64,000 nucleotides of DNA from Bdellovibrionales bacterium (GTDB taxonomy: Bacteria; Bdellovibrionota; Bdellovibrionia; Bdellovibrionales; UBA1609): NCBI GenBank assembly GCA_965203095.1, contig OZ241877.1:672001-736000 (forward strand). The letters are read 5' to 3'. Of this stretch, positions 5,783-28,419 are shown one piece after another. Position 1 is the first letter of the stretch, and every line of letters begins with the position of its first letter. The translations under genes and the position numbers were made by a program. The notes below the pieces were generated by a model. The model had not been told where the DNA came from. It did not search any database and worked only from the letters and a program-made list of their open reading frames with translations.

Positions 5783-8700
5783 ATGAGAGAAGAACAAGCA
5801 AGAAAAATAGTTGAAAAAACTTTTGAGCAAGTTTTCGATAAGGGGCGGTTTGTTTATTTCATAAAAAATCTTCTCAACTTCTTTGAGGAAAAAACTTTTA
5901 TTTATAAAGGAAACACTATTCCCAAAGCCTTTCAAGACTCTGTTAGAACTCTTGAGCGGGTAGGGCAATATAAAGATCCGGAAGGGAAAATCATTGATAT
6001 TCTGATCGTCCTTATGAAAAAGGAAAGAGCTTTGCAGTCAGCTCGCTCCCAACAGAGAAACTTTATCTCTTGGTATTTAAAAAGTCGAGGGGACATTTTA
6101 AAAGACGGTGCACTTGTCGCTTTTGTCGCTCCTAATGGGGAGGATTGGCGGTTTTCCTTTGTAAAAATGGAATATAAATTTGATAAGCAAGCAAAAATCA
6201 AAGAGGAATGGACCCCTGCCCGCCGTTATTCTTTTCTTGTGGGAAAAAACGAAGTAAGCCACACGGCCCAAAGTTCTTTTATTTCACTTTTGCAAAATGA
6301 TGAGGAGAATCCCTCTCTTGAGGAGTTAGAACAAGCTTTCTCTGTGGAAAGAGTGACGAAGGAGTTTTTTGAAAAATACCGAGAGCTTTTTCATAAACTA
6401 AAAGACTCTTTAGATAAAGTTATTGAAGGGGACAAAAAAATCAAAACAGATTTTTCGAGCAAGGGGATCCAGTCTGCTGATTTTGCTAAAAAACTTTTAG
6501 GCCAAATTGTGTTTTTGTATTTTCTTCAGAAAAAAGGTTGGTTTGGTGTGGAGAGAGGGAAGGAGTGGGGCACTGGCTCAAAACATTTTTTGCGGGAACT
6601 TTTTAATGCACGATCTCAGTCTTCCCTCAGTCCTTCCTCCGCGAAAGCAGGGATAAAAAATTCAACCTCCAGTCCTTCCCGCGAGAAAGCGAAGGGGGCG
6701 GGAACAGAAACCCAACAATTCTTTAACAACATTTTGGAACCTCTTTTTTACGAAGCCTTAGGCCGGGAGCATGAACAAGATTATTACAGCCGATTTGATT
6801 GCCGGATCCCTTTTTTAAACGGAGGCTTGTTTGAGCCAATCAATGGCTATGATTGGATAGGGACAGACATCTTTTTGCCGGACAGTTTGTTTTCCAACCA
6901 AACCAAAACCAAAGAGGGGGATATTGGGGATGGCATCTTAGATATTTTTGACCGATACAATTTCACAGTGCGGGAAGATGAGCCTTTGGAAAAAGAAGTC
7001 GCCATTGACCCGGAAATGTTAGGCAAAGTATTCGAGAATCTTTTGGAAGTAAGGGACCGTAAATCCAAAGGGACATATTACACCCCAAGGGAGATTGTTC
7101 ATTACATGTGTCAGCAAAGTTTAATCAATTATCTCTTTTCCTCCCTATCCGAAAAGCCTTTCGGCTTGCCCCCGTCAAATTTGCCAGAAAGCCCCCCGGA
7201 CTTTCTGGCTCCCGTGCAAACGAGAATCCAAAAATCCGATATTGAAATTTTTATTAAGATCAGCGACTCTTCTGTTCCGCATGATACCATTTACCAAAAG
7301 CAAAAACTGGAAAAAATACCAAAAGAAAAAAACAAAAACTACAAAGGCAGGTATTCTAAGTCCAAAATGCCAAAAGTGATTGTTGAAAACGCCTCTTTAA
7401 TAGATCAAAAATTAGCAAGTATAAAGATATGCGATCCGGCAGTAGGCTCCGGTGCTTTCCCCGTGGGGATGATGAATGAAGTTGTCCGTGCCCGAACTGC
7501 CCTCACTCCTTTTATAAAAAACCCCTCTGAGTCTGCCCCTCCCGAAAAGCCTTTCGGCTTGCCCCCGGCAAGCCTCAATCCCGCCGAGTTTGCCAAAAAG
7601 TCCCCCAGACTTTCAAGCTCCCGAAAAGCCCGTCTTTCCCGCGAAAGCGGGAACCCAGAATCCAGTCGTTCCCTCCGAGCCAGTCATTCCCTCCGACTCA
7701 GTCATTCCCGTGAAAACGGGAATCCATACCTCCTTGATAAGGGGGGCCAGGGGGGTTCAAGAAGTTCTTACCACTTCAAACGCCATGCGATTGAGCACTC
7801 CTTATATGGTGTGGATATTGATCCAAGTGCTATAGAGATCGCCAAACTCCGGCTTTGGCTTTCCCTCGTAGTGGATGAAGAGGATCGGGAAACAGTCCAA
7901 CCTCTTCCTAACTTAGATTACAAAATGCTTTGTGGCCATTCACTCTTAGGGGTGGAAAAAGAAGATTTTTCTGGCACTCCTGACATGTTTTATAAAAAAG
8001 ATATGGAAGAATTTAAACAAAAGAAAAGTCTTTATTTTAACGAAACCCGTCATAAACAAAAACAACAATACAAACAGGAAATTGAGCAGTTTATAGATAA
8101 GATCACAAAGGGCAAAAAAATCTTTGATTTTGAAGTCTACTTCTCTGAAGTTTTTCATGAAAAAGGGGGCTTTGATGTCGTCATCGCCAACCCTCCTTAT
8201 ATTGAGCACAAAAAACTCAAAGGGATCAGCAATCAACTAAAATCTTATCAAACATATTCAGGCACTGCTGATTTGTATGTTTATTTTTATGAAATCGCAT
8301 TAAATATCTTAAGAAAAAATGGAGTTCTAACTTATATATCATCAAATAAATTTATTAAGGCAAGATATGGGGTTAATTTAAGGTCATTGCTTTCTAAACA
8401 TAGGATATATAATATAGTTGATTTTACAAACATACATATTTTTAATGCTCTTGTAGCCAGTTGCATTTTGATTATTTCAAAGTCTAAAGCTAAAGAGGAT
8501 GTAGTTGCCTCGTTTCCAGATGAGACTTTTGTAGGTGATCTGTCAAAATTTATTTATGCACATAATATAAAAATTCCTGCTTCGACTTTAGGTGATGATA
8601 TTTGGCATCTTACAGATAAAACTCAAATAGAATTAAAAAATAAAATCAAAGAGAACACTAAAAAACTGGGAGCTATTTCAGGTGTAAAAATTTTTAGAGG

Positions 8701-9436
8701 GGTCACAACTGGCTATAATCCTGCATTTATTATTGATGAAGATACCAGAAAAAACCTTATCAAATTAGATAAATCTAACAAAGACATAATAAAGCCTCTT
8801 TTACAAGGACGAAACATAAAAGAATGGACATTTAAAAAAAGTGCATCCTACCTTTTGCTCACAGATTATGATATTGACATTTCAAAAAAATACCCTTTCA
8901 TTTTTCAACATCTTGAAAAGTTCAAAAAGTTTTTAATCAGAAGAGCTGATCAAGGAAGGAAATGGTGGAATTTACGGGCTTGTAAATATTATAATAAATT
9001 TGAACAGAAAAAAATTATATGGGGATTAACTGCCAATGAATGGGCTTTTACTTGGGACGAAAAAGGACATTTTTTGCCAAGCAATGGCTATATTTTAACT
9101 TCCGAAGAGCTTCATTTGAAATATATCTTGGCTCTAATGAATAGCAAACTAATGAAGTTTTATTTTTCATTTATAGGTATTATGACAGCTGGCGGAGCAT
9201 TCACTCTAAAACACGAAACTATTTATAATTTTCCTATAAAAATCGTTCAAAATAAAAACCAAAAACCATTGATTGATCTCGTGGATAAAATCCTCAATAT
9301 TACAAAAGCAAAGGATTATTTAAAAAACCCCACAAAGCAAGCCAAAGTCCAACAATACGAAAAACAAATTGACCAACTAATTTATAAACTTTACAATCTC
9401 ACTCCTTCCGAAATAAAAATTATAGAGGACTTTTAA
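5783..9436 (+). CDS. Type IIG restriction-modification fusion (Eco57I/TaqI-like N6-adenine methyltransferase)
   Basis: FLNGGLF, LGKVFENLL, GTYYTPREIV, DPAVGSGAF, GVDID, FDVVIANPPY, DLYVYF, C-terminal IDQLIYKLYNLT. Carries in-frame repeat insertions. Confidence 0.9.
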   Translation: MREEQARKIVEKTFEQVFDKGRFVYFIKNLLNFFEEKTFIYKGNTIPKAFQDSVRTLERVGQYKDPEGKIIDILIVLMKKERALQSARSQQRNFISWYLKSRGDILKDGALVAFVAPNGEDWRFSFVKMEYKFDKQAKIKEEWTPARRYSFLVGKNEVSHTAQSSFISLLQNDEENPSLEELEQAFSVERVTKEFFEKYRELFHKLKDSLDKVIEGDKKIKTDFSSKGIQSADFAKKLLGQIVFLYFLQKKGWFGVERGKEWGTGSKHFLRELFNARSQSSLSPSSAKAGIKNSTSSPSREKAKGAGTETQQFFNNILEPLFYEALGREHEQDYYSRFDCRIPFLNGGLFEPINGYDWIGTDIFLPDSLFSNQTKTKEGDIGDGILDIFDRYNFTVREDEPLEKEVAIDPEMLGKVFENLLEVRDRKSKGTYYTPREIVHYMCQQSLINYLFSSLSEKPFGLPPSNLPESPPDFLAPVQTRIQKSDIEIFIKISDSSVPHDTIYQKQKLEKIPKEKNKNYKGRYSKSKMPKVIVENASLIDQKLASIKICDPAVGSGAFPVGMMNEVVRARTALTPFIKNPSESAPPEKPFGLPPASLNPAEFAKKSPRLSSSRKARLSRESGNPESSRSLRASHSLRLSHSRENGNPYLLDKGGQGGSRSSYHFKRHAIEHSLYGVDIDPSAIEIAKLRLWLSLVVDEEDRETVQPLPNLDYKMLCGHSLLGVEKEDFSGTPDMFYKKDMEEFKQKKSLYFNETRHKQKQQYKQEIEQFIDKITKGKKIFDFEVYFSEVFHEKGGFDVVIANPPYIEHKKLKGISNQLKSYQTYSGTADLYVYFYEIALNILRKNGVLTYISSNKFIKARYGVNLRSLLSKHRIYNIVDFTNIHIFNALVASCILIISKSKAKEDVVASFPDETFVGDLSKFIYAHNIKIPASTLGDDIWHLTDKTQIELKNKIKENTKKLGAISGVKIFRGVTTGYNPAFIIDEDTRKNLIKLDKSNKDIIKPLLQGRNIKEWTFKKSASYLLLTDYDIDISKKYPFIFQHLEKFKKFLIRRADQGRKWWNLRACKYYNKFEQKKIIWGLTANEWAFTWDEKGHFLPSNGYILTSEELHLKYILALMNSKLMKFYFSFIGIMTAGGAFTLKHETIYNFPIKIVQNKNQKPLIDLVDKILNITKAKDYLKNPTKQAKVQQYEKQIDQLIYKLYNLTPSEIKIIEDF
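6615..6712 (+). repeat. Degenerate palindromic repeat, in-frame within the R-M gene
   Basis: cagtccttcctccgcgaaagcagggat and cagtccttcccgcgagaaagcgaagggggcgggaac; translates as low-complexity SQSSLSPSSAKAG. Confidence 0.55.
7148..7230 (+). repeat. Palindromic repeat, in-frame within the R-M gene
   Basis: ccgaaaagcctttcgg and gccagaaag-cccccc-ggactttctggc hairpins, ending cccgtgcaaacgagaatcca; matches intergenic copy at 12388. Confidence 0.8.
7535..7760 (+). repeat. Cluster of palindromic repeats, in-frame within the R-M gene
   Basis: ccgaaaagcctttcgg, ttcccgcgaaagcgggaa, gtcattcccgtgaaaacgggaatcca, cctccttgataagggggg. Confidence 0.8.
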
Positions 9437-10570
9437 ATGTTGGGAATTATTGATTTTCTTCAAGATCTTGTCACAATACTATCCCTTGTAGCTTCCATTG
9501 TTGCTCTTTTTGTAGCTTGGCTGGCTTATCAATTACAAAAAAAATCAGACAAAGATTTAAAGCGAATTGAAGACAATATCAATATTTTGAAAGCAGAAGG
9601 ACAAAAAATTCAAAAAAATGTTGAACAAATAAAAAAGACTTCTTCTGAAATGCAGGAATATGTTAAACAAATAAATAAGATTTCTTCTAAAATGCAGGAA
9701 AATGTTAACAAATCTTATTTTCAAATAGAAAGAACAACTGCACTCAATAAATATCCTTACGGGGAGGAATTTAAAAAAATTAACGACGCCTATCTGCCTT
9801 TTATATTTTCCTTATTTGATCCTTATGAAGAACCCATTATTGGCATACAAATCAATCCAGGCAATCCACAAGAGGATTTAAGATATAAGATAGAAGTAGT
9901 TAAAGATGAGATAAATATACCAAAAAAGAAAAGGGTTTTATATTCAAATTTTTATATTATTAAAATTTTAGCTCCTGCTTCCTCAGAATATTTGACAGAA
10001 GAGGATTTACAAAAATATAAAAACAGCCCGATAAAAGAAGGCGAATATTACGGTTGTAAATTTGATCAGATGCAATGTTCCTGGATTCTAAGTCAAAGAC
10101 TAACTATCGGCTCAAAAGAAAAAGACGGATTTTTCAAATTTTATCCCTTTGGTTCTATATCCGAGTTTGAAGTTATCCAATCCGCAAATGAGATTATGGG
10201 CTACAATCAAAACGAATATCCTGATAGTGAATATACTCTCATTAATCAGTTTATAGTAGATGAGACTGGAAGTTTTTTTAGATTATTTAAAAAAGAGAAT
10301 CAGGTTTTCTTTACTATCCATGATTCCCCTTTAAAAGAGATCTATATTCTTAAAACTTGGATTCGTGCTCAAAGTAAATATTTTCTTGTTTTTGAAAATC
10401 TAAGAGGATATATAAAAAATAAGAACTTTGTAGAAAATCTAAAAAACACAGTCCTTAAAATAATAGAATCAGATAAACTCCTTAAGCCTATGGATATATC
10501 AAGCTATAGAAAAAATTATCACATAAAAATTCCATTAGAGAATCATAAAAACCAACCTAAGCCCCCTTGA
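9437..10570 (+). CDS. Hypothetical protein X1 (N-terminal TM helix + coiled coil); paralog of 21226-22443
   Basis: 377-aa ORF abutting the R-M stop codon; long near-identical stretches with 21226-22443. Confidence 0.75.
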   Translation: MLGIIDFLQDLVTILSLVASIVALFVAWLAYQLQKKSDKDLKRIEDNINILKAEGQKIQKNVEQIKKTSSEMQEYVKQINKISSKMQENVNKSYFQIERTTALNKYPYGEEFKKINDAYLPFIFSLFDPYEEPIIGIQINPGNPQEDLRYKIEVVKDEINIPKKKRVLYSNFYIIKILAPASSEYLTEEDLQKYKNSPIKEGEYYGCKFDQMQCSWILSQRLTIGSKEKDGFFKFYPFGSISEFEVIQSANEIMGYNQNEYPDSEYTLINQFIVDETGSFFRLFKKENQVFFTIHDSPLKEIYILKTWIRAQSKYFLVFENLRGYIKNKNFVENLKNTVLKIIESDKLLKPMDISSYRKNYHIKIPLENHKNQPKPP

Positions 10571-10596
10571 ACAAAAATAATCATGTAGATTTTTTA

Positions 10597-11541
10597 TTAA
10601 AACTTTTTTGAATATTTTGATATTCTTTTTAAAATTTTCTCAAAAGGAATCTGCCCTTTATAATATAAACTTTTTTGTTTTATATATCCTCTTTCAAATA
10701 GTTCTTTTTCTTTTGTATTTTTTAGAGAAAAGGCAAGATGACTTTTGACAACAGCACTTAAGCTTTTCATTCTTTCTTTTTTGTAAGATTCATAAGGTTT
10801 TGTCCCTATAAAATTTTGAATTTTTATCTCTCCAAGAAGACAGTATAAATCGTAATAATGTCTTAGAAAATTCTCTGAAATTTTATTTGTATCCCGATAT
10901 TTTTTATACTTTCGAACAACTGCATCTAACTTTTCAATAAATGTATATTCAGGATTATAACAAACAATCCTCTTAGCTCTATTATCTTTTATAGATTTTA
11001 AACTGACCCGATCAAATATCCATGAGGAAATATCCTTATTTGTGTTAGGAGTGATTTTATCAAATCCAAGCTCTAATAAAATACCTTCTTTTATGTCGGA
11101 CAATGGGGAAAACAGGCTTTTATAATATAGTCGGATTCCCGCATTTTTATACTTAGAATCATCAAAATCTGTATCTCTTTTTACTTCTTCAATTCCATTG
11201 ATTTTTCCTTCCAGTTGATCTCGTATCCAGTCAAAATACTTTTTTCTGGATTCTATATGCTTATCTTTATTATGATTTTTTCCAAAATAAACTTGAAATT
11301 TTAATTGGCCAGCAGGAGGGATTATTTGCAGATCAATATCTTCAGAAAATCTGTCAATTATTTTAAATCCTTTGGATAAGGAAGTTCCTCCTTTCATTTG
11401 AAATTCAAACAAATTATTCAAATGGTATAATGTATTCATAATCCAGTAGTCTTTTTCAACCAATGAAACATTTATTCCTAAGTCATCGGAGACGCCTTCT
11501 GTTATATCTCTAAAATGAGGATGGTTATGTAAATAAGTCAA
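10597..11541 (-). CDS. AbiEii/AbiGii nucleotidyltransferase toxin (type IV TA)
   Basis: LVEKDYW, MKGGTSLSKGFKIIDRFSEDIDL, EKLDA, RHYYDL. Confidence 0.9.
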   Translation of the reverse strand: MTYLHNHPHFRDITEGVSDDLGINVSLVEKDYWIMNTLYHLNNLFEFQMKGGTSLSKGFKIIDRFSEDIDLQIIPPAGQLKFQVYFGKNHNKDKHIESRKKYFDWIRDQLEGKINGIEEVKRDTDFDDSKYKNAGIRLYYKSLFSPLSDIKEGILLELGFDKITPNTNKDISSWIFDRVSLKSIKDNRAKRIVCYNPEYTFIEKLDAVVRKYKKYRDTNKISENFLRHYYDLYCLLGEIKIQNFIGTKPYESYKKERMKSLSAVVKSHLAFSLKNTKEKELFERGYIKQKSLYYKGQIPFEKILKRISKYSKKF

Positions 11542-11551
11542 TGTAAAATAG

Positions 11552-12127
11552 TCATCCTGTTAAAATGATTTGAAGTTTCTTTTTTGTTGATTCTTTGCCA
11601 TAATTATTGACGGTCTGAAGGAGTTTTTTTTGGTTTAATTTTTTGAGCTGTTTTTTTAGTAAATTCATATTCTTTAGCTTGTCCTCTGCCAAACGATCAA
11701 ATCGGTTTAAAAATTCAACATATAAAAATTCTTTTGAGAGTTTTTTTGGTGCTGATCTCCACCTGTAAAAATGATAAAGCCTTCCTTTAAATTGAAAAAC
11801 ACCATGTCTTTTTCGGTTAAAAACAACTCTCTTGTTATGGAGTTGTGTCAGCCCTAATCCCAACCCATTAAACAAGCTTAAATCATAAACTACAAATTTA
11901 TCATCTTTTAAAAAAGTTCTAAGCAGTTGGTTCTCTTCAGGAAAAGCTGTTCCCAAAGGAGTTTTCTCAGGACACATATAAAGGCCATTTTGTATTTTTA
12001 CCAGTGCTTTTTGAGAAACCAGTTTTTTTAAATAACGATCGGCATTAGAGGATAATCGCGTAAAATCACCTCTCCGATAAACAAACCGTGGTTTCAGCTT
12101 TTTTTTCATTTGCTTAAGAACAGTCAT
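11552..12127 (-). CDS. Probable AbiEi-type antitoxin (DUF6088-like)
   Basis: N-terminal wHTH-like VYRRGDF...LKKLV...NGLY, FNGLGLGLTQ; lies directly upstream of the AbiEii gene. Confidence 0.7.
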   Translation of the reverse strand: MTVLKQMKKKLKPRFVYRRGDFTRLSSNADRYLKKLVSQKALVKIQNGLYMCPEKTPLGTAFPEENQLLRTFLKDDKFVVYDLSLFNGLGLGLTQLHNKRVVFNRKRHGVFQFKGRLYHFYRWRSAPKKLSKEFLYVEFLNRFDRLAEDKLKNMNLLKKQLKKLNQKKLLQTVNNYGKESTKKKLQIILTG

Positions 12128-12203
12128 ATTTTATATATTGGCTTTTCTCTCTTAAATTGTCAACTATTTTATTAAAAATCTATGTAATTTTTTAAACAAC
12201 CAA

Positions 12204-12311
12204 TAAAAAACTCTGCCAAACAAGCTAAAATCCGAGAATACAAAAAACAAATTGACAAGCTGGTTTATAAACTTTACAATCTCACCCCCTACTGAAATAA
12301 AAATCATAGAA
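12204..12311 (+). pseudogene. Orphan copy of the 3' end of the type IIG R-M gene (frameshifted)
   Basis: Translates KNSAKQAKIREYKKQIDKLVYKLYNLTP/TEIKIIE versus KNPTKQAKVQQYEKQIDQLIYKLYNLTPSEIKIIE at 9321-9436. Confidence 0.85.
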
Positions 12312-12387
12312 AAGTCTAAAAATAAAAAATCTATGCAATCGCTCGTGAAAAAGCAATTTTTTCTGTTCAGCTTGGCTACCGCGAACC

Positions 12388-12459
12388 TTGCCAGAAAGCC
12401 CCCCGGCTTTCTGGCTCCCGCGAAAGCCCGTCATTCCCGTGAAAACGGGAATCCAGAAA
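12388..12459 (+). repeat. Intergenic palindromic (REP/MITE-like) repeat
   Basis: ttgccagaaagccccccggctttctggc followed by gtcattcccgtgaaaacgggaatccagaaa. Confidence 0.8.
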
Positions 12460-12551
12460 AGTTTGTCCTTCCGCAAAGCTTATTAAAAACCTAATAATAT
12501 TTTAAAAGAAAGGCTTGACATAGCTTGCATGGTGGCTTTAAACTGCTTTTA

Positions 12552-13686
12552 TACTGGTCTTGTTTGAATTTTCAGGTTTCGATGACATGAAAATTATCAG
12601 TAATAAGCATGGACAATTCAGCCCTGTATTTTCTAACACCTCTTAAAAACAGCATCAACTCTTTACGAAAAGTTTTAAGATCTGAAAAATACACATTAGC
12701 CATTGTCTTCTTCTTTACAAATTTCCAAAACCTCTCAATAGGATTCAAATTAGGAGAAAATGGAGGCAAATACAGCAAAGTAATATCCAAACTTTTCGCT
12801 AAATCCCTCACCTGAAAGGCCCTGTTATATGGTGCATTGTCTAAAACCAAATACAACCTTTTATCCCTCATAGGCTGTCTCGCCCTCACAGCTCGCAATA
12901 ACTCCTGCATTGAATTTTTATTAACCCTCTCACAGCTTCTACTGACAAAATCTAAACTATTTATCTCTATCGCACCATTTATATTCACCCGCTCACGACC
13001 TGAATTAGTTTTAACCTTAAACTCCACCCCCTTCTTAATCCAACCCGATGATATTACAGGATTGAGCATAGGATGAGTTGAATCCGCAAAATACACTAAA
13101 TCACCTCTCTTTTTTATCCTGCGATATCTTTGAATAAACACCTTCTGCTTCTCAATATCAGCCTTCCCAGGCACACCCTTTGGCTTCTTATATGAAAAAT
13201 CTAACTTGTGAAGTAAAGCCGTCATTCCATTCACAGTATAAACAACCCCAAATGTCTTTTGAACATATAAAACAACTGCCTTTGTTGTGGGATATACCTT
13301 TGACTCCAACTCCAAAACCAGTTTCTTCCGTTGTTCCTCAGATAAATACGACATGCGACCTCTATGATCGTCATAAACCAACCTCGACAAACCTCCTTCT
13401 TCATAACGCCTTTTGCAGTTTCTGATAGTTCCTTCATCAAAAAATAAAAATCTCGCAATATCGGTGACAGACTCTCCACTATCCAGCAACAAAATAACCC
13501 GGATACGATCCGCTCGCCTACGATTCCTTTCCAAACGAAGAAAAGTTAAAAGCTCTGCTTTTTGCTTGCCAGTTAAAAATGAGTTCATAGAAACATATTA
13601 TAGAACATCCAAAAGATTTGGAAAACTCATAATGCCAAAAACTAAACCTTTATCAAAAAAACTTGATTTTTTAAATCAAACCAGTA
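12552..13686 (-). mobile_element. IS630-family insertion sequence, 1135 bp (copy 1)
   Basis: Ends TACTGGT...ACCAGTA, TA duplicated at 12550-51 and 13687-88; same length and identical transposase protein as 50684-51818. Confidence 0.95.
12572..13588 (-). CDS. IS630 family DDE transposase
   Basis: HTH region, VYFADST, LVLDNAPY, YLPPFSPNLNPIERFW. Confidence 0.95.
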   Translation of the reverse strand: MNSFLTGKQKAELLTFLRLERNRRRADRIRVILLLDSGESVTDIARFLFFDEGTIRNCKRRYEEGGLSRLVYDDHRGRMSYLSEEQRKKLVLELESKVYPTTKAVVLYVQKTFGVVYTVNGMTALLHKLDFSYKKPKGVPGKADIEKQKVFIQRYRRIKKRGDLVYFADSTHPMLNPVISSGWIKKGVEFKVKTNSGRERVNINGAIEINSLDFVSRSCERVNKNSMQELLRAVRARQPMRDKRLYLVLDNAPYNRAFQVRDLAKSLDITLLYLPPFSPNLNPIERFWKFVKKKTMANVYFSDLKTFRKELMLFLRGVRKYRAELSMLITDNFHVIET

Positions 13687-13690
13687 TAAT
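13663..13690 (+). promoter_or_regulatory. Putative hybrid sigma70 promoter at the IS630 end
   Basis: TTGATT (13663-68, inside IS), 16 bp, TATAAT (13685-90, spanning the junction); AGGAGG RBS and ATG 13714 follow. Confidence 0.55.
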
Positions 13691-13713
13691 TTTCACTTTT
13701 AGGAGGTCAATCC

Positions 13714-14697
13714 ATGATTAAAGCTCAAATCGATCAGTTTGGAGGCTCAACAAGCTTTAAAAAATCAAATCAGAGTAGACAAATGAACAATATAGAAACC
13801 AAAAATAAGAATATAGAAGCTTTAAACTTATCAAGTGAAATTTTAAAGAATATCGAGCTATCAGAGATTTCTCTTGAAAAAATATGTTTAAAGTGCATTA
13901 GCCTGGCGAGATTATGTGGAGATAGTGATCATGAACTGGCTTTTAAACTGGAAGTTTTAGGTTATGGAAATGTCACTAATGGCATTCCTCCTCACATATT
14001 TAAAATTGCAGAAATAGCCAATCGAGTGACAGAGGATGATAAAGGTCAAAAAAGTTGTTTTACACTTTCAATATCTAAGCTTGAAATTATACAAAAAGCA
14101 GGACACAAAGAATTAGAAAAAATTGTTGATCCAAATTCTACAACACCTAACAGCATATTGGAAAGCAATGTTTTTTCAAAAGAGATTATAAAAATGAGCA
14201 ATTGGCTTCCACAGAGAGTAGAGTTTATATATTCTTATGTGAGTGAAAAATTTTATAAATTAAGTTTTGAAAAAGAGCTGTATTTTGTTTTAGGCAATTT
14301 AGCTGAATCTATTAAAAACACTGTCTCTGACATAATTCCAGAAGGTAGCAAAAAAATAATATCCGTTCTTGAAAACTTAAAAAGCAACAATTCTCAAGAT
14401 TGGAAAAATGTTTTAGTGACTTGCAGAAATCTATTAAAGGAAACAGCAGAAACTTTAAAACCAAAATCCAACAATAAGAAATACTATGATACCCTCAAAA
14501 GTATTGTAAAAGACAGTTCCTTATCACAAACAGATAAATCCCTTTTAGAGCAAGATATAACAGTTCTGATAGACCCATTGAATGAGGGAGCACATGATCG
14601 CCCTGTATCCAGGAAAAACGCTGAAGAGTTATTTATTCGTGTTTGCTTGTTTTTATCTAAGATAATTGAACTCAATCAGAAAAAACAAGAAAGGTAA
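13714..14697 (+). CDS. AbiTii-like domain protein, possible C-terminal HEPN-like helical domain
   Basis: EILKNIELSEISLEKICLKCISLARL...KLEVLGY resembles the AbiTii N-terminus; C-terminal CRNLL...NEGAH. Recognised by eye. Confidence 0.55.
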   Translation: MIKAQIDQFGGSTSFKKSNQSRQMNNIETKNKNIEALNLSSEILKNIELSEISLEKICLKCISLARLCGDSDHELAFKLEVLGYGNVTNGIPPHIFKIAEIANRVTEDDKGQKSCFTLSISKLEIIQKAGHKELEKIVDPNSTTPNSILESNVFSKEIIKMSNWLPQRVEFIYSYVSEKFYKLSFEKELYFVLGNLAESIKNTVSDIIPEGSKKIISVLENLKSNNSQDWKNVLVTCRNLLKETAETLKPKSNNKKYYDTLKSIVKDSSLSQTDKSLLEQDITVLIDPLNEGAHDRPVSRKNAEELFIRVCLFLSKIIELNQKKQER

Positions 14698-14709
14698 AAA
14701 AATGCCACT

Positions 14710-17700
14710 ATGAATACAAAGATTAAAAATAAAGGATCAGAATGGAATATATGGGATCTGCATATACATACACCAGCTTCTTTTCACTGGAAGGGTGGAT
14801 CTAAGTTTCAAAAAATGAGTGATGAAAACATAAGATCATCTTGTTTGGAAATTATCAAAAAGATAAATTCATCAGAACCAATTGCTTATGCAGTCGTAGA
14901 TTATTTTACTTTTGACGGAATACTGAAAATCAGAGAATTTTCAGAAGAAAATCCTTTGAAAAAAACAATATTCCCTGGTATTGAATTAAGGATTGAAGCT
15001 CCCACAAATTTTAGACCTAATATTCAAGTTCTTTTTTCAGAAAATATCACAGATCAAGAGCTGAGAGACTTTAAAAGTGAATTAAAAATATTTGGAACAG
15101 AAAGACCACTCTCTGAAGAAGCAATAATAAAAGTTGCAAAAACTTTAACCTCAGACAAAGCTAAAGAACATATTGGAAATCAAGAATATAAAACAAATGA
15201 TGATATAGCTTATCAGCTTGGATGCAAAACTATTGCAATAACCAGAAATTCTTTTGAGGAGGCTGTCAAAAACTTAGGAAAAGATAAATGTCTTGTTATA
15301 CTTCCTTATGAGACTTTTAATGGTATTAGCCAATTAAATTGGCAGAAACACCCAATAGAAGATATGTATTACCTTGGCATGGCTGATTTTTTTGAATCCA
15401 GAAAATCAGAATATATAGATCTTTTTTTAGGGAGAGAAACAGAAAAAAATGAAAAATTTTTTGACAATTTTCAACAAGCTATAGGTGGCAGGCCAAAGCC
15501 TGTTTTGTCTGGTTCAGATGCACATAAGATAGAAGATTATGGGAAATTCCCACATGACAAAAAAACATGGTTAAAAGCTGAGCCAACTTTTAAGGGATTG
15601 CGTCAAGTTATTGCAGAACCTAAAGAAAGATGTTTTATTGGAGAAAAACCTGAAAAATTAAAAATTATCAAATCTAAGGCCACAAAATTTATATCAAAAA
15701 TAAAAATTGAAAAAAAGCAGGGAAATGATTTTCCTGAAAAATGGTTTAACAATGAAGTATATTTCAATCCTGAATTGATAGCAGTCATTGGAAATAAAGG
15801 TTCCGGAAAAAGTGCATTGACTGACATTTTAGGACTTCTTGGTGGTTCAAAGCAATATGCCTCATTTTCTTTTTTGAATAAGAAAAAATTTTTAAGTAAA
15901 AATGGAGAAAAAGCCAAACATTTCCAAGCTACTCTATATTGGGAAAATCAAGAGAGCAATCAAAAAAATTTAAACGATGCAGTTAGTTCAACTGAAATAG
16001 AAAAGATAAAATATATACCACAGTCCTATTTGGAAAATTTATGTAATGAAATTAACTCACAAAACAATTTATTTGATAGAGAATTAAAAAATGTAATTTT
16101 TTCTCACATATCTTATGAGAAAAAGTTAGGATATGATAACCTTGATTCTTTATTGAAATTTAAAACAGAGGAAATAAATCAGGAAATATCTAATTTCAGA
16201 ATGGAATTAAAAAGTATAACAAAAAATATTTTAGATAACAGAAGAAAAATAACTGAAGAATATAAAACAAACCTTGCAAATAGGTTGTCCGCAAAACAAA
16301 AGGAGCTTGAGGCTGTTAAAAGCTCAAAACCTGAAGAAGTTTTAAAGCCAGAAATTGATAACATCGATCCTGCTACAAAAGAAAAAATTAAAAAATTAGA
16401 ACAATTAAAATTAGAGGAAAAAGAAATAGAAAATGAAATTAAATCATTAGAGACTGAGATTGGTTCTCTTAGAAAAAAGAAAGCCACCTTAGATAAAGCG
16501 ATTGCTCAAATTAAACTTTTAGAACAAGATGTTATAAAAAAATCGCACGAAGTGAGAAAATTATTAGAGAGCGTGGGCTGTAATGAGCCTAATATCATTA
16601 CATTTGATTCAAAAATTATAGATTTAGAGAAATTGTCTAATAAGTGGGGTCAGAAGTTAAAAGCAAAGTCAGAATTAGTTGATGTTTTTTCAAGCCATGA
16701 AGAAAACAGTTTATGGTTTAAAAGACAGAATATTCAAGATAAGATAAAAAAGATTTCTGAAGAAATTGATGAACCAAATAAAAAATTCCACAAATACTTA
16801 TCAGACTTTGAAAATTGGAAACAAAAAGTTCAACTTATCCAAGGAGATGAAAATAAACCTGATACAGTGAGCTACTTAAATACAGAATTGAGCAAAATCA
16901 ATAGCATTCCAACGAAAATAACTGATCTTGAAAAGCAAAGAAACGATTTAGTGAAGAAAATTTATGGTAAAATAAGTGAGTTATCTCAAATTTATAGAGA
17001 GTTTTATGATCCTGTTCAAAAGTTTATTTCAGCAAAACCTTTTGAAGAGGATATATTTAAAATTTCTTTTAAGGTGGAAATTATAGATAAAAGTTTCAAA
17101 ACTGATTTTTTTAACTTGATCAACAGAAACAAATCAGGAACTTTTTATGGAAATGAAAACAGTGAAAAAAGAATAAATCGTTTGCTTGATTCCTTTGATT
17201 TTAATAAGTTAGAGGATGTAATACAATTTGTCGATACTGTCTTTAATCAATTAGAAAATGATTATAGAGAAACTGAACCAAAGAAAACCAGATTTGAACT
17301 TCAGGCAAGAGATCCAAAGCACCCAGAGAACCTTTATAACATGATTTTTGGATTGGAATATCTTGAGCCAAAATATTCCCTACAACTGAATGACAAAAAC
17401 ATTGCTCAATTATCACCTGGAGAGAGAGGAACATTATTATTGATTTTCTATTTAATGATTGATAAAGATGATAAACCTTTAATTTTAGATCAACCTGAAG
17501 AGAATCTTGATAATCAAACGATATTTAAAGTTTTGGTCCCTTGTATTAAAAAAGCGAAAAAAAGCAGACAAGTATTTTTGGTCACACATAACCCAAACTT
17601 AGCTGTGGTATGTGATGCCAAACAGATAATTGTGGCTTCAATCGATAAAACAAACAATAATGCTGTTCATTATCATTCTGGAGCGATTGAAAATCCTGAG

Positions 17701-17793
17701 ACAAATAAAAAAGTTTTAGATATATTGGAAGGCACAAAACCTGCATTTGAAAACAGAGAAAACAAATATCAAAATTTAAAACCTTCATCTTGA
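14710..17793 (+). CDS. PHP phosphoesterase + ABC/SMC-type ATPase (TrlF/Ppl-like)
   Basis: WDLHIHTP, GIE, GSDAH (PHP); GNKGSGKS Walker A, coiled coil, LSPGERG signature, LILDQPEENLD Walker B, VTHNPN. Confidence 0.85.
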   Translation: MNTKIKNKGSEWNIWDLHIHTPASFHWKGGSKFQKMSDENIRSSCLEIIKKINSSEPIAYAVVDYFTFDGILKIREFSEENPLKKTIFPGIELRIEAPTNFRPNIQVLFSENITDQELRDFKSELKIFGTERPLSEEAIIKVAKTLTSDKAKEHIGNQEYKTNDDIAYQLGCKTIAITRNSFEEAVKNLGKDKCLVILPYETFNGISQLNWQKHPIEDMYYLGMADFFESRKSEYIDLFLGRETEKNEKFFDNFQQAIGGRPKPVLSGSDAHKIEDYGKFPHDKKTWLKAEPTFKGLRQVIAEPKERCFIGEKPEKLKIIKSKATKFISKIKIEKKQGNDFPEKWFNNEVYFNPELIAVIGNKGSGKSALTDILGLLGGSKQYASFSFLNKKKFLSKNGEKAKHFQATLYWENQESNQKNLNDAVSSTEIEKIKYIPQSYLENLCNEINSQNNLFDRELKNVIFSHISYEKKLGYDNLDSLLKFKTEEINQEISNFRMELKSITKNILDNRRKITEEYKTNLANRLSAKQKELEAVKSSKPEEVLKPEIDNIDPATKEKIKKLEQLKLEEKEIENEIKSLETEIGSLRKKKATLDKAIAQIKLLEQDVIKKSHEVRKLLESVGCNEPNIITFDSKIIDLEKLSNKWGQKLKAKSELVDVFSSHEENSLWFKRQNIQDKIKKISEEIDEPNKKFHKYLSDFENWKQKVQLIQGDENKPDTVSYLNTELSKINSIPTKITDLEKQRNDLVKKIYGKISELSQIYREFYDPVQKFISAKPFEEDIFKISFKVEIIDKSFKTDFFNLINRNKSGTFYGNENSEKRINRLLDSFDFNKLEDVIQFVDTVFNQLENDYRETEPKKTRFELQARDPKHPENLYNMIFGLEYLEPKYSLQLNDKNIAQLSPGERGTLLLIFYLMIDKDDKPLILDQPEENLDNQTIFKVLVPCIKKAKKSRQVFLVTHNPNLAVVCDAKQIIVASIDKTNNNAVHYHSGAIENPETNKKVLDILEGTKPAFENRENKYQNLKPSS

Positions 17794-17835
17794 TTCTTTT
17801 ATGGATGTGAAGATAAAGAAAAATCAAGGATAGGT

Positions 17836-18543
17836 ATGGCAGGCTTATCGAGTATTGAATGGACAGAGGCGACTTGGAATCCTCTAACAGGCTGTAATAC
17901 AATCAGTCCGGGTTGTAAAAACTGCTATGCAGAAAGGTTGTCGTATCGTCTTCAAAAAATGGGGCAATCCAATTATAGAAACGGCTTTGAGCTGACTTTA
18001 CATGAATCCAGTTTGCAAATCCCTGCACAGTGGAACAAACCACGAATGATTTTTGTCAATTCTATGAGTGATCTTTTTCATAAAGCTGTTCCTCTCTCTT
18101 TTATTAAAAAAGTTTTTGAGGTTATGAATGATTTGCCTCAACATAAATTTCAAGTTCTAACTAAAAGAGCAGATCGTTTAGAGCAAATAGCCCATAAACT
18201 GAATTGGACTTCCAATATATGGATGGGTGTTAGTGTGGAAAGTGCAAAATACAAATTTCGTATCCAGCATCTTTTAAGAACACCGGCCAAAATCAAATTT
18301 TTATCGCTGGAGCCTCTTTTAGAGCCTTTGTCTCGTCTTAAACTTAAAGGCATTGATTGGGTGATAGTAGGAGGAGAGTCCGGGCCAAAAGCCAGACCTA
18401 TGAAAAAGGAATGGGTGCTTTCCCTTCGCGACCAATGCATTAGGAAAAAAACTCCGTTCTTTTTTAAACAATGGGGAGGAGTGCGAAAGCACAAAACCGG
18501 ACGACTGCTTGAAGGCAGAACTTGGGATGAAATGCCCTTCTAA
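17836..18543 (+). CDS. DUF5131 / phage Gp37-Gp68 family three-Cys protein
   Basis: [58 protein letters not shown]. Confidence 0.9.
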
Positions 18544-18583
18544 TCGCCTGCCAGAAAGCCCTGTCCTTCCTCACAAAGCAAGA

Positions 18584-18639
18584 TTTCTGGATTCCCGTTT
18601 GCACGGGGGAGCCAAAAAGCTTGGGGAGCTTTTTGGCAA
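18584..18639 (-). repeat. Intergenic palindromic repeat, inverted relative to the 12388 copy
   Basis: Reverse complement reads ttgccaaaaagctccccaagctttttggctcccccgtgcaaacgggaatccagaaa. Confidence 0.78.
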
Positions 18640-18924
18640 AATGAGACTTTTTCAAAAGGGACTAATGTAGTTATTAAAAAGGAGGGATAACTTTTTATCC
18701 GTTTCCTTATGCAAAAACAGGCATTTTGACGCCGTTTGTTAATCTCTGGAAAAATATATAAAATAAAGGATTTTATGAAAACTGGGTTTTGGGCTGGTTA
18801 TAGACGGGTCATGGCCCAGTCACTATGAACCTTTTTTAGCTAAAAACAAAGAGCTTTAAACAAATTTGTTGTTTTTCTTTTGGATTGAGATATAATACCA
18901 TAAGCAGAAAAGCAGGGTTATCCT

Positions 18925-19114
18925 GCTCAAAGGCAAACATTTTCTTGTTTTTGAAAATTTAAGAGGATATGTAAAAAACGAGAACTTTGTAGAAAATCTG
19001 AAAAACATAGTTCTTAAAACAATAGAATTGGATAAACTACCTGAGCGAGATGTAGATACATTAAAATATAGGAAAAACCATCATCATATAAAAATTCCAT
19101 TAAAAAATAATTAG
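18925..19114 (+). pseudogene. C-terminal remnant of the hypothetical protein X family
   Basis: Translates KHFLVFENLRGYVKNENFVENLKNIVLK...HIKIPLKNN*, matching the X1/X2 C-termini; no start codon. Confidence 0.85.
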
Positions 19115-19140
19115 TTTAAAAAAACACAAGGAGGTGTTTT

Positions 19141-19560
19141 GTGAAACATAATCAAAGAGATTTATTACTTAGTATTCATTTTGAATACGCAATAAAAATA
19201 GTGAATGGTTTAAAAACTATAGAACTTAGAAGAAAATTTCCACTTTTTAAAGAAGAGGACGAAAAGAAAATTTTTGTTTATGCTTGCTCCCCAATTTCAC
19301 AAATTATAGGAGAATGTGAATTAAAAGAAGTGAAAAAATTTTCATTAAAGAGGCTTTGGAATGAAACAAAAGATTCTGCTATGATAGATCAATATTCGTT
19401 TAAAAAATATTTTAAAAATTGTATTTTTGGCTTTGCTTTATATCTTAATAATCCAGTAAAATATGATCAATTTATAGGATTAAAACAGATTTTTGGACAA
19501 AATAACAGCCCTCCTCAATCCTATAGATATATGGCTAAATCTGTAATAGTAACGGCTTGA
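19141..19560 (+). CDS. ASCH (PUA-like) domain protein
   Basis: LLSIHFEYAIKIVNGLKTIELRR, FVYACSP...IIGE, PPQSYRY; AGGAGG RBS, GTG start. Confidence 0.85.
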   Translation: MKHNQRDLLLSIHFEYAIKIVNGLKTIELRRKFPLFKEEDEKKIFVYACSPISQIIGECELKEVKKFSLKRLWNETKDSAMIDQYSFKKYFKNCIFGFALYLNNPVKYDQFIGLKQIFGQNNSPPQSYRYMAKSVIVTA

Positions 19561-19579
19561 TTCCTAAGGTGGTTTTATA

Positions 19580-21109
19580 GTGGATAAAATTTATTTTCTT
19601 ATAGATACAAATATTTTTATACAACTGGAAGATAATCAAATTGTAAAGGAATCATTTGCAAAGTTTCATAATCTCTGTAATAAACATTCTGTTGTAATCT
19701 TCACTCATCCTTTATCAAGAGAGGAAATAGAAAAAGATAAAAATAAACAAAGAAGAGATGAAACTTTAAGTAAAATTGATAAATATACACAGATTGAGGA
19801 TCCTCCATCAATAGATAAAACTCAATTAGAATCCCGATTTGGAGCAATTAAAAAATCCAATGATGAAATCGACTGCCAAATGCTTTACACCTTAATAAAA
19901 AACGCTGTTTCTTTTTTGGTGACAGAAGATATAGGCATTCATCAAAGGGCTAAACTTGCATCTATTAAAAATAAAGTCTTGACTGTTAATCAAGCTAACA
20001 ATATGTTAGAGCGATTATTTCCAAAACCAATAGAATTTTCTTTGCCAGAAATTAAAAATACTTATATTCGCAATGTAAATCATGATGATATAATTTTTGA
20101 CAGCTTAAATAGTGATTATGACAATTTTGCTGATTGGATAAAAAAGTGTTCCATAGAACAGGTTAAGGCATGGATTATTAAAAATTCAGAAGATAAGTTG
20201 GAATCTATCTGTATCTATAAAGAAGCTAAAAATGAAGATTATACCTTATATGACCTTCCAAAAAAATCATTAAAACTTGCAACATTTAAAGTTGCAGAAT
20301 CTCATAGAGGAAAAAAATTAGGGGAATTGATGCTAAAACAAGCGTTTCTTTATTCTGTAAAAAATAATTTTAAATCTTGTTGGATGACAGTATTTTCAAG
20401 ATATGAAATTTTAATTGGTTTTATAAAAGATTTTGGTTTTTTTGAAATTGGAAAAACAAAATTGATAGACAAAAAAACAAATAAACCAGAATTAGTTTTT
20501 AAAAAAGATTTTACTAAACCAAAAAAAAGTGAATTGAAAGGTTTAGATTTTCATATAAAACACTTTCCTTTTTATGATGATAGCAATGATATAGGAAAAT
20601 ACATCATTCCCATAAAGAAAAAATACCATAAAACACTTTTTCCGGAGTATGAGGAGCTTTTTTCTCCTCCTTTAGTAGACAATCAGTATTTTTTTCCAGG
20701 AATGGATAGAATAACAAATAATATTCCAGGGCATACAATAAAAAAAGTATATCTTTGTCATTCTCCAACAACGCAGTTAAAGTTAAGTGATTTATTACTT
20801 TTTTATATTTCTTCCCCAAAACAAGCTATTTGTTCAATGGGCATCATTGAGTCGGTTTTTCGCTCAGATAAACTCAGTAAAATAGTTTCTCATATAGGAA
20901 AAAGATCTGTTTATTCTTTTTCAGAAATACAAGAGATGACAAAAAGAGAAACACTGGTAATAGCTTTTAGGCTCATAAAACATTTTAAAAAAGAAGTTTC
21001 ATTTAATACTTTAAAAAAAGAACAAATAATAAAAGGCCCACCTCAGTCAATCCAAAAATTAAAAAATGAATCCTATGATAAATTTAACAAACTTGTTGAA
21101 ACAAATTGA
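19580..21109 (+). CDS. PIN-like + GNAT acetyltransferase + ASCH/PUA-like multidomain protein
   Basis: FLIDTNIF and LVTEDIGI (PIN); LKLATFKVAESHRGKKLGELM (GNAT acetyl-CoA motif); IIPIK..Y, KKVYLC, DLLLFY, GPPQS (ASCH-like). Confidence 0.78.
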   Translation: MDKIYFLIDTNIFIQLEDNQIVKESFAKFHNLCNKHSVVIFTHPLSREEIEKDKNKQRRDETLSKIDKYTQIEDPPSIDKTQLESRFGAIKKSNDEIDCQMLYTLIKNAVSFLVTEDIGIHQRAKLASIKNKVLTVNQANNMLERLFPKPIEFSLPEIKNTYIRNVNHDDIIFDSLNSDYDNFADWIKKCSIEQVKAWIIKNSEDKLESICIYKEAKNEDYTLYDLPKKSLKLATFKVAESHRGKKLGELMLKQAFLYSVKNNFKSCWMTVFSRYEILIGFIKDFGFFEIGKTKLIDKKTNKPELVFKKDFTKPKKSELKGLDFHIKHFPFYDDSNDIGKYIIPIKKKYHKTLFPEYEELFSPPLVDNQYFFPGMDRITNNIPGHTIKKVYLCHSPTTQLKLSDLLLFYISSPKQAICSMGIIESVFRSDKLSKIVSHIGKRSVYSFSEIQEMTKRETLVIAFRLIKHFKKEVSFNTLKKEQIIKGPPQSIQKLKNESYDKFNKLVETN

Positions 21110-21179
21110 CCAACAGGTTTATAAACTTTACAATCTCACTTCAAAAGATATTGAGATTATTGAAAAAAATAAAAGATAA
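21099..21179 (+). pseudogene. Second orphan copy of the R-M gene 3' end
   Basis: aaacaaattgaccaacaggtttataaactttacaatctcact translates KQIDQQVYKLYNLTSKDIEIIEKNKR*. Confidence 0.85.
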
Positions 21180-21225
21180 CTTAAAAAGGTATTTTGGAAT
21201 TTTCAACAACTATAAAGAAAAAACG

Positions 21226-22443
21226 ATGACAAAAGATCAAAAAAAATCAAAACTCTCTCTCATTTTAAAATGGATACCTTTTCAGTTTAAATATAAAAAG
21301 CAAATATTATATTTTGTATTTCCAGTTTGTTTGTTAGTGTTATTTTTAGGTGATTCGTTTGCATCAAAGCTATCCCTTGTAGCTTCCATTGTTGCTCTTA
21401 TTGTGGCTTGGCGGGCCTATCGATTACAAAAAAAATCAGAAAAAGATTTAAAGCAAATTGAAGAGAATATCTATATTTTGAAAGCGGAAGGACAAAAAAT
21501 TCAAAAAAATGTTGAACAAATAAAAAACACTTCTTCTAAAATGCAGGAATATGTCAACAAGTCTTATTTTCAAGTAGAGAGAACAACTGCACTCAACAAA
21601 TATCCCGACAGGGAGGAATTTAAAAAAATTAACGAAGCCTATCTGCCTTTTATATTTGCCTTATTTGATCCTTATGATAAACCCATTATTGGCATACAAA
21701 TCCATCCAGACAATTCAGAAGAGGATTTAAGATATGATATAGAAGTAGTTAAAAATGAGATAAATATACCAAAAAAAGAGAGGTTTTTATATTCAAATTT
21801 TTACATTATTAAAATTTTAGCTCCGGCCTTTTCAGGAGGTTTGACAGAAGAGGATTTACAGAAATATAAACACAGCCCGATAAAAGAAGGCGAATATTAT
21901 GCTTGTAGATTTGATCAGATGCAATGTTCCTGGATTCTAAGTCAAAGACTAACTATCGGCTCAAAAGAAAAACCCGGATTTTTCAAATTTTATCCCTCTG
22001 GTTCTATATCTGAAGCTGAGATTGTTCCCTCCGCAAATGAGGTTATGGGATACAATCAAAACAAATATCCTGGCAGTGAATATACTCTCCTTGGTCGGTT
22101 TATAGTAGATGAGACTGGCAATTTTCCTGCAAGAGCTGGAGATTTTTTTAAGTTATTTAAAAAAGAGAATCAGGTTTTCTTTACTATCAATGATTCTCCT
22201 TTAAAAGAGATATATATTCTTAAAACTTGGATCCATGCTCAAAGCAAATATTTTCTTGTTTTTGAAAACCTAAGAGGATATATAAAAAATCAAAATTTTG
22301 TAGAAAATCTAAAAAACAGAATCTTTGAGAAAATTAACTGGAATGATTTGCTTGAAAAAAGTATGGATGAAATCAAATATGAAAAAAACCATCATATAAA
22401 AATCCCATTAGAGAATCATAAAAACCAGCTTAAGCCCTCCTGA
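21226..22443 (+). CDS. Hypothetical protein X2 (paralog of X1 with an extra N-terminal TM segment)
   Basis: Shares LSLVASIVAL...QCSWILSQRLTIGSKEK...HIKIPLENHKNQ with 9437-10570. First ATG is at 21226; the ORF track starts at TTG 21106. Confidence 0.75.
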   Translation: MTKDQKKSKLSLILKWIPFQFKYKKQILYFVFPVCLLVLFLGDSFASKLSLVASIVALIVAWRAYRLQKKSEKDLKQIEENIYILKAEGQKIQKNVEQIKNTSSKMQEYVNKSYFQVERTTALNKYPDREEFKKINEAYLPFIFALFDPYDKPIIGIQIHPDNSEEDLRYDIEVVKNEINIPKKERFLYSNFYIIKILAPAFSGGLTEEDLQKYKHSPIKEGEYYACRFDQMQCSWILSQRLTIGSKEKPGFFKFYPSGSISEAEIVPSANEVMGYNQNKYPGSEYTLLGRFIVDETGNFPARAGDFFKLFKKENQVFFTINDSPLKEIYILKTWIHAQSKYFLVFENLRGYIKNQNFVENLKNRIFEKINWNDLLEKSMDEIKYEKNHHIKIPLENHKNQLKPS

Positions 22444-28416: not shown

Positions 28417-28419
28417 AAA

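Follow-up and report, generated by a model that had tools for sequence, protein, structure and literature searches.

The stretch of a Bdellovibrionales genome analysed here (the window; 64,000 nucleotides) carries a type IIG restriction–modification (R-M) gene and, directly behind it, an island of defence genes interrupted by partial copies of the R-M gene's own 3′ end and by copies of the gene that follows it. Its features are as follows.

5783..9436, plus strand: type IIG R-M gene (Eco57I + TaqI_C) whose conserved core runs up to NPPY (8189)
8201..9259, plus strand: AT-rich target-recognition region; amino acid identity 60% to G009, 23–25% to the own-genome paralogue and G007a
9260..9436, plus strand: T0, the live R-M gene's conserved coding tail
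9437..10570, plus strand: gene X copy 1 (X1), no Pfam or NCBIfam family
10597..12127, minus strand: AbiEii (10597–11541) and AbiEi (11552–12127)
12204..12311, plus strand: T1, orphan tail, frameshifted; left join the same as that of the orphan in G007a
12379..12490, plus strand: palindromic repeat found throughout the genome, at 80 sites in contig C1
12502..12550, plus strand: short segment common to G007a (86% over 49 nt), promoter-like match at 12515
12549..13688, minus strand: IS630 element, transposase 12572–13588; 8 identical copies in the genome
13714..17793, plus strand: AbiTii-like gene (13714–14697) and TrlF-family ATPase (14710–17793)
17836..18543, plus strand: DUF5131 (PDC-M41B), 81% to G007a
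18921..19114, plus strand: X′, 3′ stub of gene X
19141..21109, plus strand: PDC-M11 pair (PDC-M11B/A), ASCH (19141–19560) and PIN protein (19580–21109)
21099..21179, plus strand: T2, orphan tail; the PIN gene ends at a stop codon within it
21226..22443, plus strand: gene X copy 2 (X2), N terminus different from X1

The R-M gene fuses restriction endonuclease and methyltransferase with an NPPY motif and a TaqI_C domain, as expected of type IIG, and matches the corresponding PADLOC model with an E value of 1e-279. Its frame stays open over 1,217 amino acids despite in-frame palindromic repeat insertions inside the core, and restriction and methylation are predicted activities. The loss of GC past the NPPY motif, judged by eye in the original prediction, was borne out by a GC scan (GC 0.40 to 0.294, GC3 0.40 to 0.23), in which a peak of 0.48–0.54 at 7150–7735 arises because palindromic repeats lie there. 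The AT-rich part is the specificity region, which is swapped among relatives: the core is 73, 73 and 64% identical to G000b, G007a and G009, and the domain 25, 23 and 60%, making the domain incongruent with the core. A genome scan queried with the specificity region alone returned 0 of 150 candidates. The own-genome paralogue (C1:544 kb) has a PLD-SNF2 neighbour.

Nucleotide matches confirm that the R-M tail recurs as two orphans (12204–12311 and 21099–21179), dead copies of the last 27–36 codons. T1 (12204–12310) aligns to 9321–9426 with 82% identity over 107 nt (E = 3e-23) and carries a +1 frameshift; T2 (21099–21140) matches 42 nt of the live tail with 93% identity (E = 9e-11), and its reading, up to 21179, is KQIDQQVYKLYNLTSKDIEIIEKNKR followed by a stop. 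Across the 1.8 Mb genome there are only four tails: T0, T1, T2 and that of the intact paralogue. T1 scores higher against the tail of this paralogue than against T0, and diagnostic sites, checked for gene conversion, are mixed between T1 and the live tails.

Gene X is likewise present twice, with a C-terminal stub, as had been proposed, and nowhere else in the 1.8 Mb genome. X2 is 84% identical to X1 across 1,119 nt of DNA, with homology beginning only at 9479/21370, and therefore the 5′ ends of the two copies differ; X′ (18921–19111) shares 81% identity with X1 and 75% with X2. By eye, X1 has a hydrophobic N terminus followed by a coiled-coil-like stretch, and an SD-like AGAGGA lies in the last codons of T0, 7 nt ahead of its start. 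Searches of Pfam, NCBIfam and PADLOC gave no family beyond weak coiled-coil matches; there are 18 other homologues, and the best Atlas score (0.89) is to hypothetical proteins. The proposed role of gene X as a recombination anchor fits this window only: in G011, X follows an HTH and reverse-transcriptase pair with no tail nearby.

The expected AbiE, AbiTii/ATPase/DUF5131 and ASCH/PIN modules were all found between these markers; a GNAT domain claimed for the last was not returned by Pfam. The AbiTii-like gene scores 27.0 bits, just below the Pfam cut-off of 27.6, and the ATPase is assigned to TrlF by 632 bits against a cut-off of 350, with Ppl far below its cut-off. No M41A partner of DUF5131 was present among the ORFs scanned. 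The IS630 element had gone unrecorded in the original prediction.

An assembly chimera was rejected, as zero-difference contigs bridge most joins (7697–9625, 10289–11382, 13660–14925, 17856–19645 and 19618–21516), with the caveat that the sequencing runs concerned, X4–X6, may be the source sample. The T1 join has no bridging contig among the matches listed; G007a has the same AbiEi–T1 join. A second sample shows the same island wherever covered, and the contigs of the runs examined, a form of data that drops rare variants, contained no crossover, no circle and no deletion between tails; turnover is therefore slow or undetected. The single joint at 97% likeness (9460 to 20548) was set aside, since a side of 20 letters is not long enough to be reliable. 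Runs X1–X3 hold only 5–10% of the words, those in runs X1 and X2 being short pieces, IS630 and repeats, and so no habitat is claimed.

To place the island in context, 132 related loci were surveyed with a tail HMM (threshold 12 bits; best reversed-sequence decoy 8.0 bits), comparing one genome per species and leaving out 431 of 511 and 451 of 531 confirmed family matches. Same-strand orphan tails number 29 in 856 kb downstream and 0 in 815 kb upstream. They occur at 17 of the 132 loci, about one in eight, in several phyla; the other 115 have none within the flank covered. Cassettes comprise one or two genes, mostly on one strand, often defence or toxin–antitoxin genes (pAgo-SIR2, DRT-type reverse transcriptase, Mrr, YhcG, MazF, PDC-M11, PDC-M41), and many between-tail genes have no family. 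Viral contigs hold 14 loci, ten with a tail match and one (L212) with two.

Comparison of loci identifies the tail as a recombination boundary, as originally predicted: it bounds the DNA shared between loci on either side, homology starting 77–197 nt before the R-M stop and running into the cargo in three of the four pairs checked. The further proposal that specificity region and cargo travel as one lasting unit was not supported, as only one of 11 pairs sharing a first cargo shares a specificity class; 106 loci fall into 96 first-cargo clusters and 52 specificity classes. Specificity domains thus swap between core and tail, and the cargo behind the tail swaps independently.

In line with the predicted displacement of older modules, those that head the cargo after an intact tail in one genome are internal in another. 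A cassette that is first in L050 is internal in L045; there, 823 nt covering the second orphan and its cargo match the intact tail and cargo of L050 with 96% identity. The ASCH/PIN module of the window has a 72% identical counterpart in L054, placed immediately after an intact R-M tail, with homology ending at 21087, 12 nt before T2; in G009 the intact tail is followed by a 5′ stub of ASCH. Three orthologous Nitrospirales loci are in different states: L057 is empty, L072 has two genes and no orphan, and L079 has a reverse transcriptase, an orphan and M41A/DUF5131. Boundaries unrelated to the tails, named beforehand as evidence against such an array, do occur in part: G000 and G007a share AbiEi–T1 through to DUF5131 and differ in the intervening genes, which have non-tail ends. 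There, the AbiTii/TrlF pair is replaced in G007a by an unrelated 779-aa ORF (orf779), with no tail at either end of the swap. The genes suggested as flanks, ridA and cinA, lie 0.4–1.3 Mb apart in four near-complete relatives, without synteny.

On balance, we favour the view that the island is a defence stack behind a type IIG R-M gene, grown by RecA-type crossovers in the conserved tail and without an integrase. The moving unit would be the tail plus the genes behind it. Where its far end joins the conserved flank, old cargo would be replaced and no orphan left (L057, L072); where it rejoins the resident tail or first gene, the old tail and cargo would be pushed downstream. Rejoining could be an imprecise join or the single-crossover entry of a tail–cargo circle, with rare imprecise joins making new orphans. 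Judged from position only, T2–X2 would be oldest, with X′–ASCH/PIN joined into T2 next, then T1 through DUF5131 into X′, then T0–X1–AbiE into T1, and IS630 last. Natural transformation is a likely entry route; the genome encodes ComEC-, DprA- and RecA-like genes (RecA recognized by eye). What counts against this view is the first, orphan-creating join, which it leaves unaccounted for: a circle or imprecise join should sometimes leave domain remnants, yet 0 of 29 orphans carry one, and no same-strand remnant lies downstream in the 132 loci. Tails of different species are only about 70–85% identical, which is low for efficient RecA exchange. Also against it are the 115 loci with no orphan within the flank covered, the tail-free ends of the AbiTii/TrlF–orf779 swap and the absence of crossovers, circles and tail-to-tail deletions from the contigs examined. 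More tentatively, the tail may serve several phyla as an integrase-free docking site that is under second-order selection, with circles looping out between tails, spreading by transformation and re-entering any tail: a RecA-driven integron for defence genes, which in this lineage would also supply the cassette promoter.

Several other origins were weighed. A donor could anchor in the methylase core and bring domain and cargo together, its far end joining the old gene end illegitimately; homology-facilitated illegitimate recombination would be the mechanism. We think this unlikely, despite a foreign-looking, swapped specificity region and a PIN gene end that T2 cuts short in comparison with L054, the outcome expected of an imprecise join. 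Most orphans also resemble the tails of other genes, a point in favour of the preferred view too, 20 of 29 (T1 and T2 included) matching another gene's tail better than their own in a 'best of 131 others' comparison that favours others by construction. Against it stand the decoupling of domain and cargo (one of 11 pairs) and the absence of domain remnants beside the 29 orphans, even though a domain has about six times the length of a tail. Coupling at entry, broken later, could still hold.

Less probable still is duplication of the resident 50–170 nt tail around cargo by break repair near the gene end, with later domain swaps diverging the live tail. The six orphans of L045, 91–98% identical to the live tail and to one another with 5′ extents of 93–172 nt, fit this, and the passages available from Furuta et al. 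2010 (PMC2853133) describe variable-length direct repeats of >30 bp at R-M loci, without a mobile element. The repeats and inserts here fall within that study's size limits (>30 bp and <20 kb). There, however, R-M genes are the insert rather than the target, and the repeats, in the rows considered, are near-identical (44/46 to 47/47). In the window the end of the R-M gene serves as target instead, the copies are about 76–82% identical, and the inserts (AbiE, TrlF, PDC-M11 and similar) lack the R and M genes of its definition. T1, moreover, is only 82% identical to T0 and scores higher to the paralogue, and the own tail is top-ranked for just 9 of the 29 orphans, five of these in L045.

It is doubtful that orphan tails, whatever their origin, are kept as promoters for the genes behind them, a reading that could hold in this lineage only. 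The sigma-70 match of T1 (11/12) is the best in the 8.8–22.6 kb region, T0 and T2 reach 10/12, all with 17-nt spacers, and T2 begins 7 nt ahead of its −35 box. Yet that region has 73 such matches where chance gives 61 ± 8, and a family-wide promoter is not supported: 120 tails score 7.46 against 7.44 for synonymous recoding, orphans score 7.17 against 7.13 for their live tails, and several orphans start past the −35 position.

An integron-like system with a dedicated recombinase using the tail as an att site, suggested by the one- or two-gene, mostly same-strand cassettes and by a tyrosine recombinase gene 1.9 kb upstream (2828–3808), is very improbable and already largely refuted by the variable boundaries, orphan 5′ ends ranging from HMM column 1 to 37. 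The array had been predicted to be integrase-free, and no integron integrase was found: the nearby recombinase is XerC-like (XerC 207 bits, integron integrase 110, both below cut-off), and neither of the two scanned among the genome's three tyrosine recombinases is IntI. Of the 17 orphan loci, 2 have such a recombinase nearby, against 6 of the 115 others, and the tail has no special DNA conservation (synonymous conservation 0.25 versus 0.22–0.25 in other conserved blocks).

A stack grown through the tail, as we favour, has partial parallels. The arrays formed by Rhs C-terminal displacement, for which homologous recombination through circles without an integrase was proposed (Jackson et al. 2009, PMC2935791), as excerpted, similarly have, behind an intact gene, detached pieces of the gene end that vary in length and lie on the same strand, and GC steps from the conserved to the variable part. 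Rhs orphans, however, pair a core fragment with a variable tip and act as spare tips, whereas the orphans here are conserved tail only, past the variable domain, and hold no specificity in reserve; the cargo consists of defence genes that are unrelated. Type IIG target-recognition domain exchange, or DoMo (PMC2853133; PMC3077401), also swaps a variable domain between conserved stretches by recombination, but the passages concerned describe domain exchange alone, with no stacked cargo or orphan tails. The E. coli immigration control region (PMC12707154), in the part considered, has variable defence content in a fixed place with no integrase anchor; its anchors are flanking genes and its content is replaced, whereas at the present locus the coding sequence of the R-M gene itself contains the anchor, and serial scars are left behind. 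Invertible type II R-M loci homologous to Cj0031 (Milman et al. 2023, PMC9881135, in part) share the PLD-SNF2 neighbour of the own-genome paralogue, a likeness by neighbour gene; they carry inverted domain-plus-tail copies, whereas the window has direct tail-only copies. Inverted copies are absent from the window and present in L084, which looks like such an invertible locus. No published description of the tail-docked defence array was found in the literature searched.

The growth of integrase-free defence islands is poorly explained. Because the seam is a short searchable sequence in a widespread R-M gene, acquisition order is readable from the DNA and the mechanism is testable with one construct. 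With 96 first-cargo clusters at 106 loci, the position behind the tail offers a ready-made set of anti-phage candidates, gene X included.

The tail that ends a type IIG restriction–modification (R-M) gene was predicted to recur downstream as orphan copies, together with a repeated gene X and its stub, and self-BLAST of the window bears this out. The window spans positions 672001–736000 of contig C1 in a genome of 1.8 Mb and two contigs. This genome holds four R-M tail copies, the fourth belonging to an intact paralogue (locus G000b) without an orphan. The features of the window are:

4747–5781, Rpn/YhgA-like gene adjoining the R-M island (also at both R-M loci of relative G007: G007a, 14427–15452; G007b, 11102–12223)
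5783–9436 (+), live R-M gene ending in tail T0
7148–7735, 12379–12490, 18584–18640 and 28417–28484, palindromic repeat family, in frame within the R-M gene at the first of these places
9437–10570, gene X, first copy (X1)
12204–12310, orphan tail T1, 82% identical over 107 nt
12549–13688, IS630, with 8 identical copies in the genome
18921–19114, 3′ stub of gene X (X′), 81% identical to X1 and 75% to X2
21099–21140, orphan tail T2, 93% identical over 42 nt
21226–22443, gene X, second copy (X2), aligned at 84% over 1,119 nt
23028–23574 (−), pair of small Cys-rich ORFs in tandem, with 86% identity across 184 nt
23913–24771, TIR (ThsB-like) gene and then one for an 8xMP membrane protein, an additional defence module that lies downstream of X2 and has no bounding tails
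27550–28416, coiled-coil-repeat gene that matches Hjc (nuclease-like) weakly (also L001:10222–10872); it flanks both R-M loci of this genome, with 80% DNA identity between copies

The palindromic family occupies 80 places in contig C1, 9 of them within long open frames, and we take its in-frame members in the window to be reminiscent of Rickettsia palindromic elements. The defence modules, checked with Pfam, PADLOC and NCBIfam, are largely as the original prediction named them, except that these scans returned no GNAT domain for the window module, that AbiTii scores slightly below the Pfam cut-off and that the 'PHP-ATPase' is TrlF-family rather than Ppl. GC content falls from 0.40 to 0.294 at the NPPY motif (repeat zone left out of the comparison), as expected from the AT-richness noted by eye; the same step is present in G000b, G007a and relative G009, and absent in AT-rich G002. 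Zero-difference contigs, from runs that may be the source sample itself, span the joins TRD–T0–X1 (TRD, target-recognition domain), X1–AbiEii, IS–AbiTii, DUF5131–X′–ASCH and PIN–T2–X2. Run X7, another sample from the same study, agrees with the window in the listed pieces, with a few base changes.

Across the family, orphans are genuine, polar and made up of tail alone, and it is at the tail that shared DNA begins. Loci comprised the best 80 of at least 511 confirmed in genomes, the best 80 of at least 531 confirmed in metagenomes and 4 regions of the window lineage; 132 of the 164 have a tail ending a long open frame (127 clusters of R-M genes at 90%), and 32 were left out because the contig stopped too soon, the gene was disrupted or the tail score lay below threshold. 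With the threshold at 12 bits (best decoy, 8.0 bits), searching with a tail HMM yields 29 orphans on the same strand across 856 kb downstream, at 17 loci including the window, two matches in L133 probably being a single interrupted tail; inverted orphans numbered 2, and there were none in 815 kb upstream. Same-strand domain or core remnants are absent downstream in all 132 loci. Domain copies occur downstream only in L084, inverted and beside an integrase: two domain-plus-tail copies and then a tyrosine recombinase (13294–16728), resembling the invertible type II R-M shufflons described in PMC9881135.

Orphan-bearing loci with a titled record come, among others, from Elusimicrobiota, Nitrospirae, Neomarinimicrobiota, Saccharibacteria and Bacteroidales; the closest R-M relatives among the titled matches listed are Bdellovibrionales. 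In 19 of the 29 cases, the orphan's start is at most 110 nt from the ORF ahead of it. Cargo is frequently defence or toxin–antitoxin genes (64 + 40 chosen ORFs scanned), with many ORFs lacking a family and some representing housekeeping flanks. The cleanest test case is L045 (7000–14200), in which six orphan tails, 91–98% identical to the live tail, each head small toxin–antitoxin or ATPase genes. A pAgo + SIR2 pair lies behind R-M genes with differing domains in L101 (9915–13240) and L151 (6818–10149), followed in both by an orphan tail.

The original prediction also had a new specificity region entering together with cargo. Near-full-length homologues exist in 3 of 9 same-genus genomes (G002, G007 with two copies, G009), at unrelated chromosomal places where ridA and cinA are not adjacent. 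Core identity to the window protein is 73% (G000b), 73% (G007a) and 64% (G009), against domain identities of 25%, 23% and 60%, so the domain has been swapped. Its exchange is decoupled from cargo: over 106 loci the first cargo falls into 96 clusters and the domain into 52 classes, and both are shared by 1 of the 11 pairs that have cargo in common and by 1 of the 149 pairs that have the domain in common. In G000b, G002 and G009 the R-M gene comes after a PLD-SNF2 helicase, which is missing at the window locus; the second G007 copy (G007b, L024) is stop-broken with a duplicated 5′ piece ahead of the gene, and short R-M 5′-end duplications are present at G007a too.

That the tail marks module boundaries holds in part. 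DNA homology begins 77–197 nt ahead of the R-M stop and runs into cargo in 3 of 4 pairs checked, the fourth match being confined to the tail, and L045 orphan 2 with its cargo equals the live tail and cargo of L050 (96% over 823 nt). G007a reads R-M, orf254, ASCH 5′ stub, AbiEi 5′ stub, orphan tail, orf779 and broken DUF5131; its orphan starts exactly where T1 does, and it shares with the window both the AbiEi flank (79%) and 49 nt lying beyond the orphan. Identity between the two species' core genes is 66–80%, so this block is old. AbiTii/TrlF of the window is replaced there by orf779 with no tail at either end, which argues against every boundary being a tail. The ASCH|AbiEi join is also present in runs X4, X5 and X7, so a co-occurring relative with this order is likely. 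An ASCH stub lies behind the intact tail in G009, and L054 has a complete ASCH/PIN pair directly behind its intact tail, the homology of the pair with the window stopping at 21087; the window PIN takes its stop codon from T2, with a different, shorter C-terminus than in L054. Gene X, also proposed as an anchor, behaves so in the window alone. A homologue of X in G011 (L196:4455–6851) comes after a pair of HTH and reverse-transcriptase genes that looks retron-like by eye, a neighbourhood that suggests that X, too, is defence cargo.

Site-specific integration finds little footing: IntI was not found among the window-genome recombinases scanned, and a four-sequence HMM of limited reach places tyrosine recombinases near 2 of the 17 loci with orphans and near 6 of the 115 others. 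Synonymous conservation is not raised in the tail; T0, T1 and T2 are all strong sigma-70 matches, and tails family-wide have no excess of these. ComEC- and DprA-family genes are present in the window genome.

A RecA-type crossover within the tail probably moves tail and cargo as a unit; replacement of old cargo would leave no scar, and rejoining at the resident tail or at the first gene would stack the island. L057, L072 and L079 share both flanks; L057 is without cargo, L072 has cargo but no orphan, and L079 has both. The gene after the orphan has a first-position homologue in some locus for 6 of 28 orphans, X2/X1 among them, and the top-ranking tail for an orphan is that of its own gene in 9 of 29 cases, 5 of them in L045. 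Such a crossover would account for moving cargo but not for the absence of domain pieces at orphans. Homology-facilitated illegitimate recombination is a mechanism for joins with one homologous anchor; circle entry, an illegitimate join or target duplication are candidate first joins. Read from position only, acquisition may have run T2–X2, X′–PDC-M11, the T1 block and then T0–X1–AbiE.

In how it works the layout resembles Rhs displacement arrays (PMC2935791) and long target duplication (PMC2853133), but it lacks a defining feature of each. No description of orphan R-M tails between defence cassettes was found in the full-text literature searched (mostly open-access, main texts). With its mechanism inferred, the orphan-tail layout is a real, general feature.
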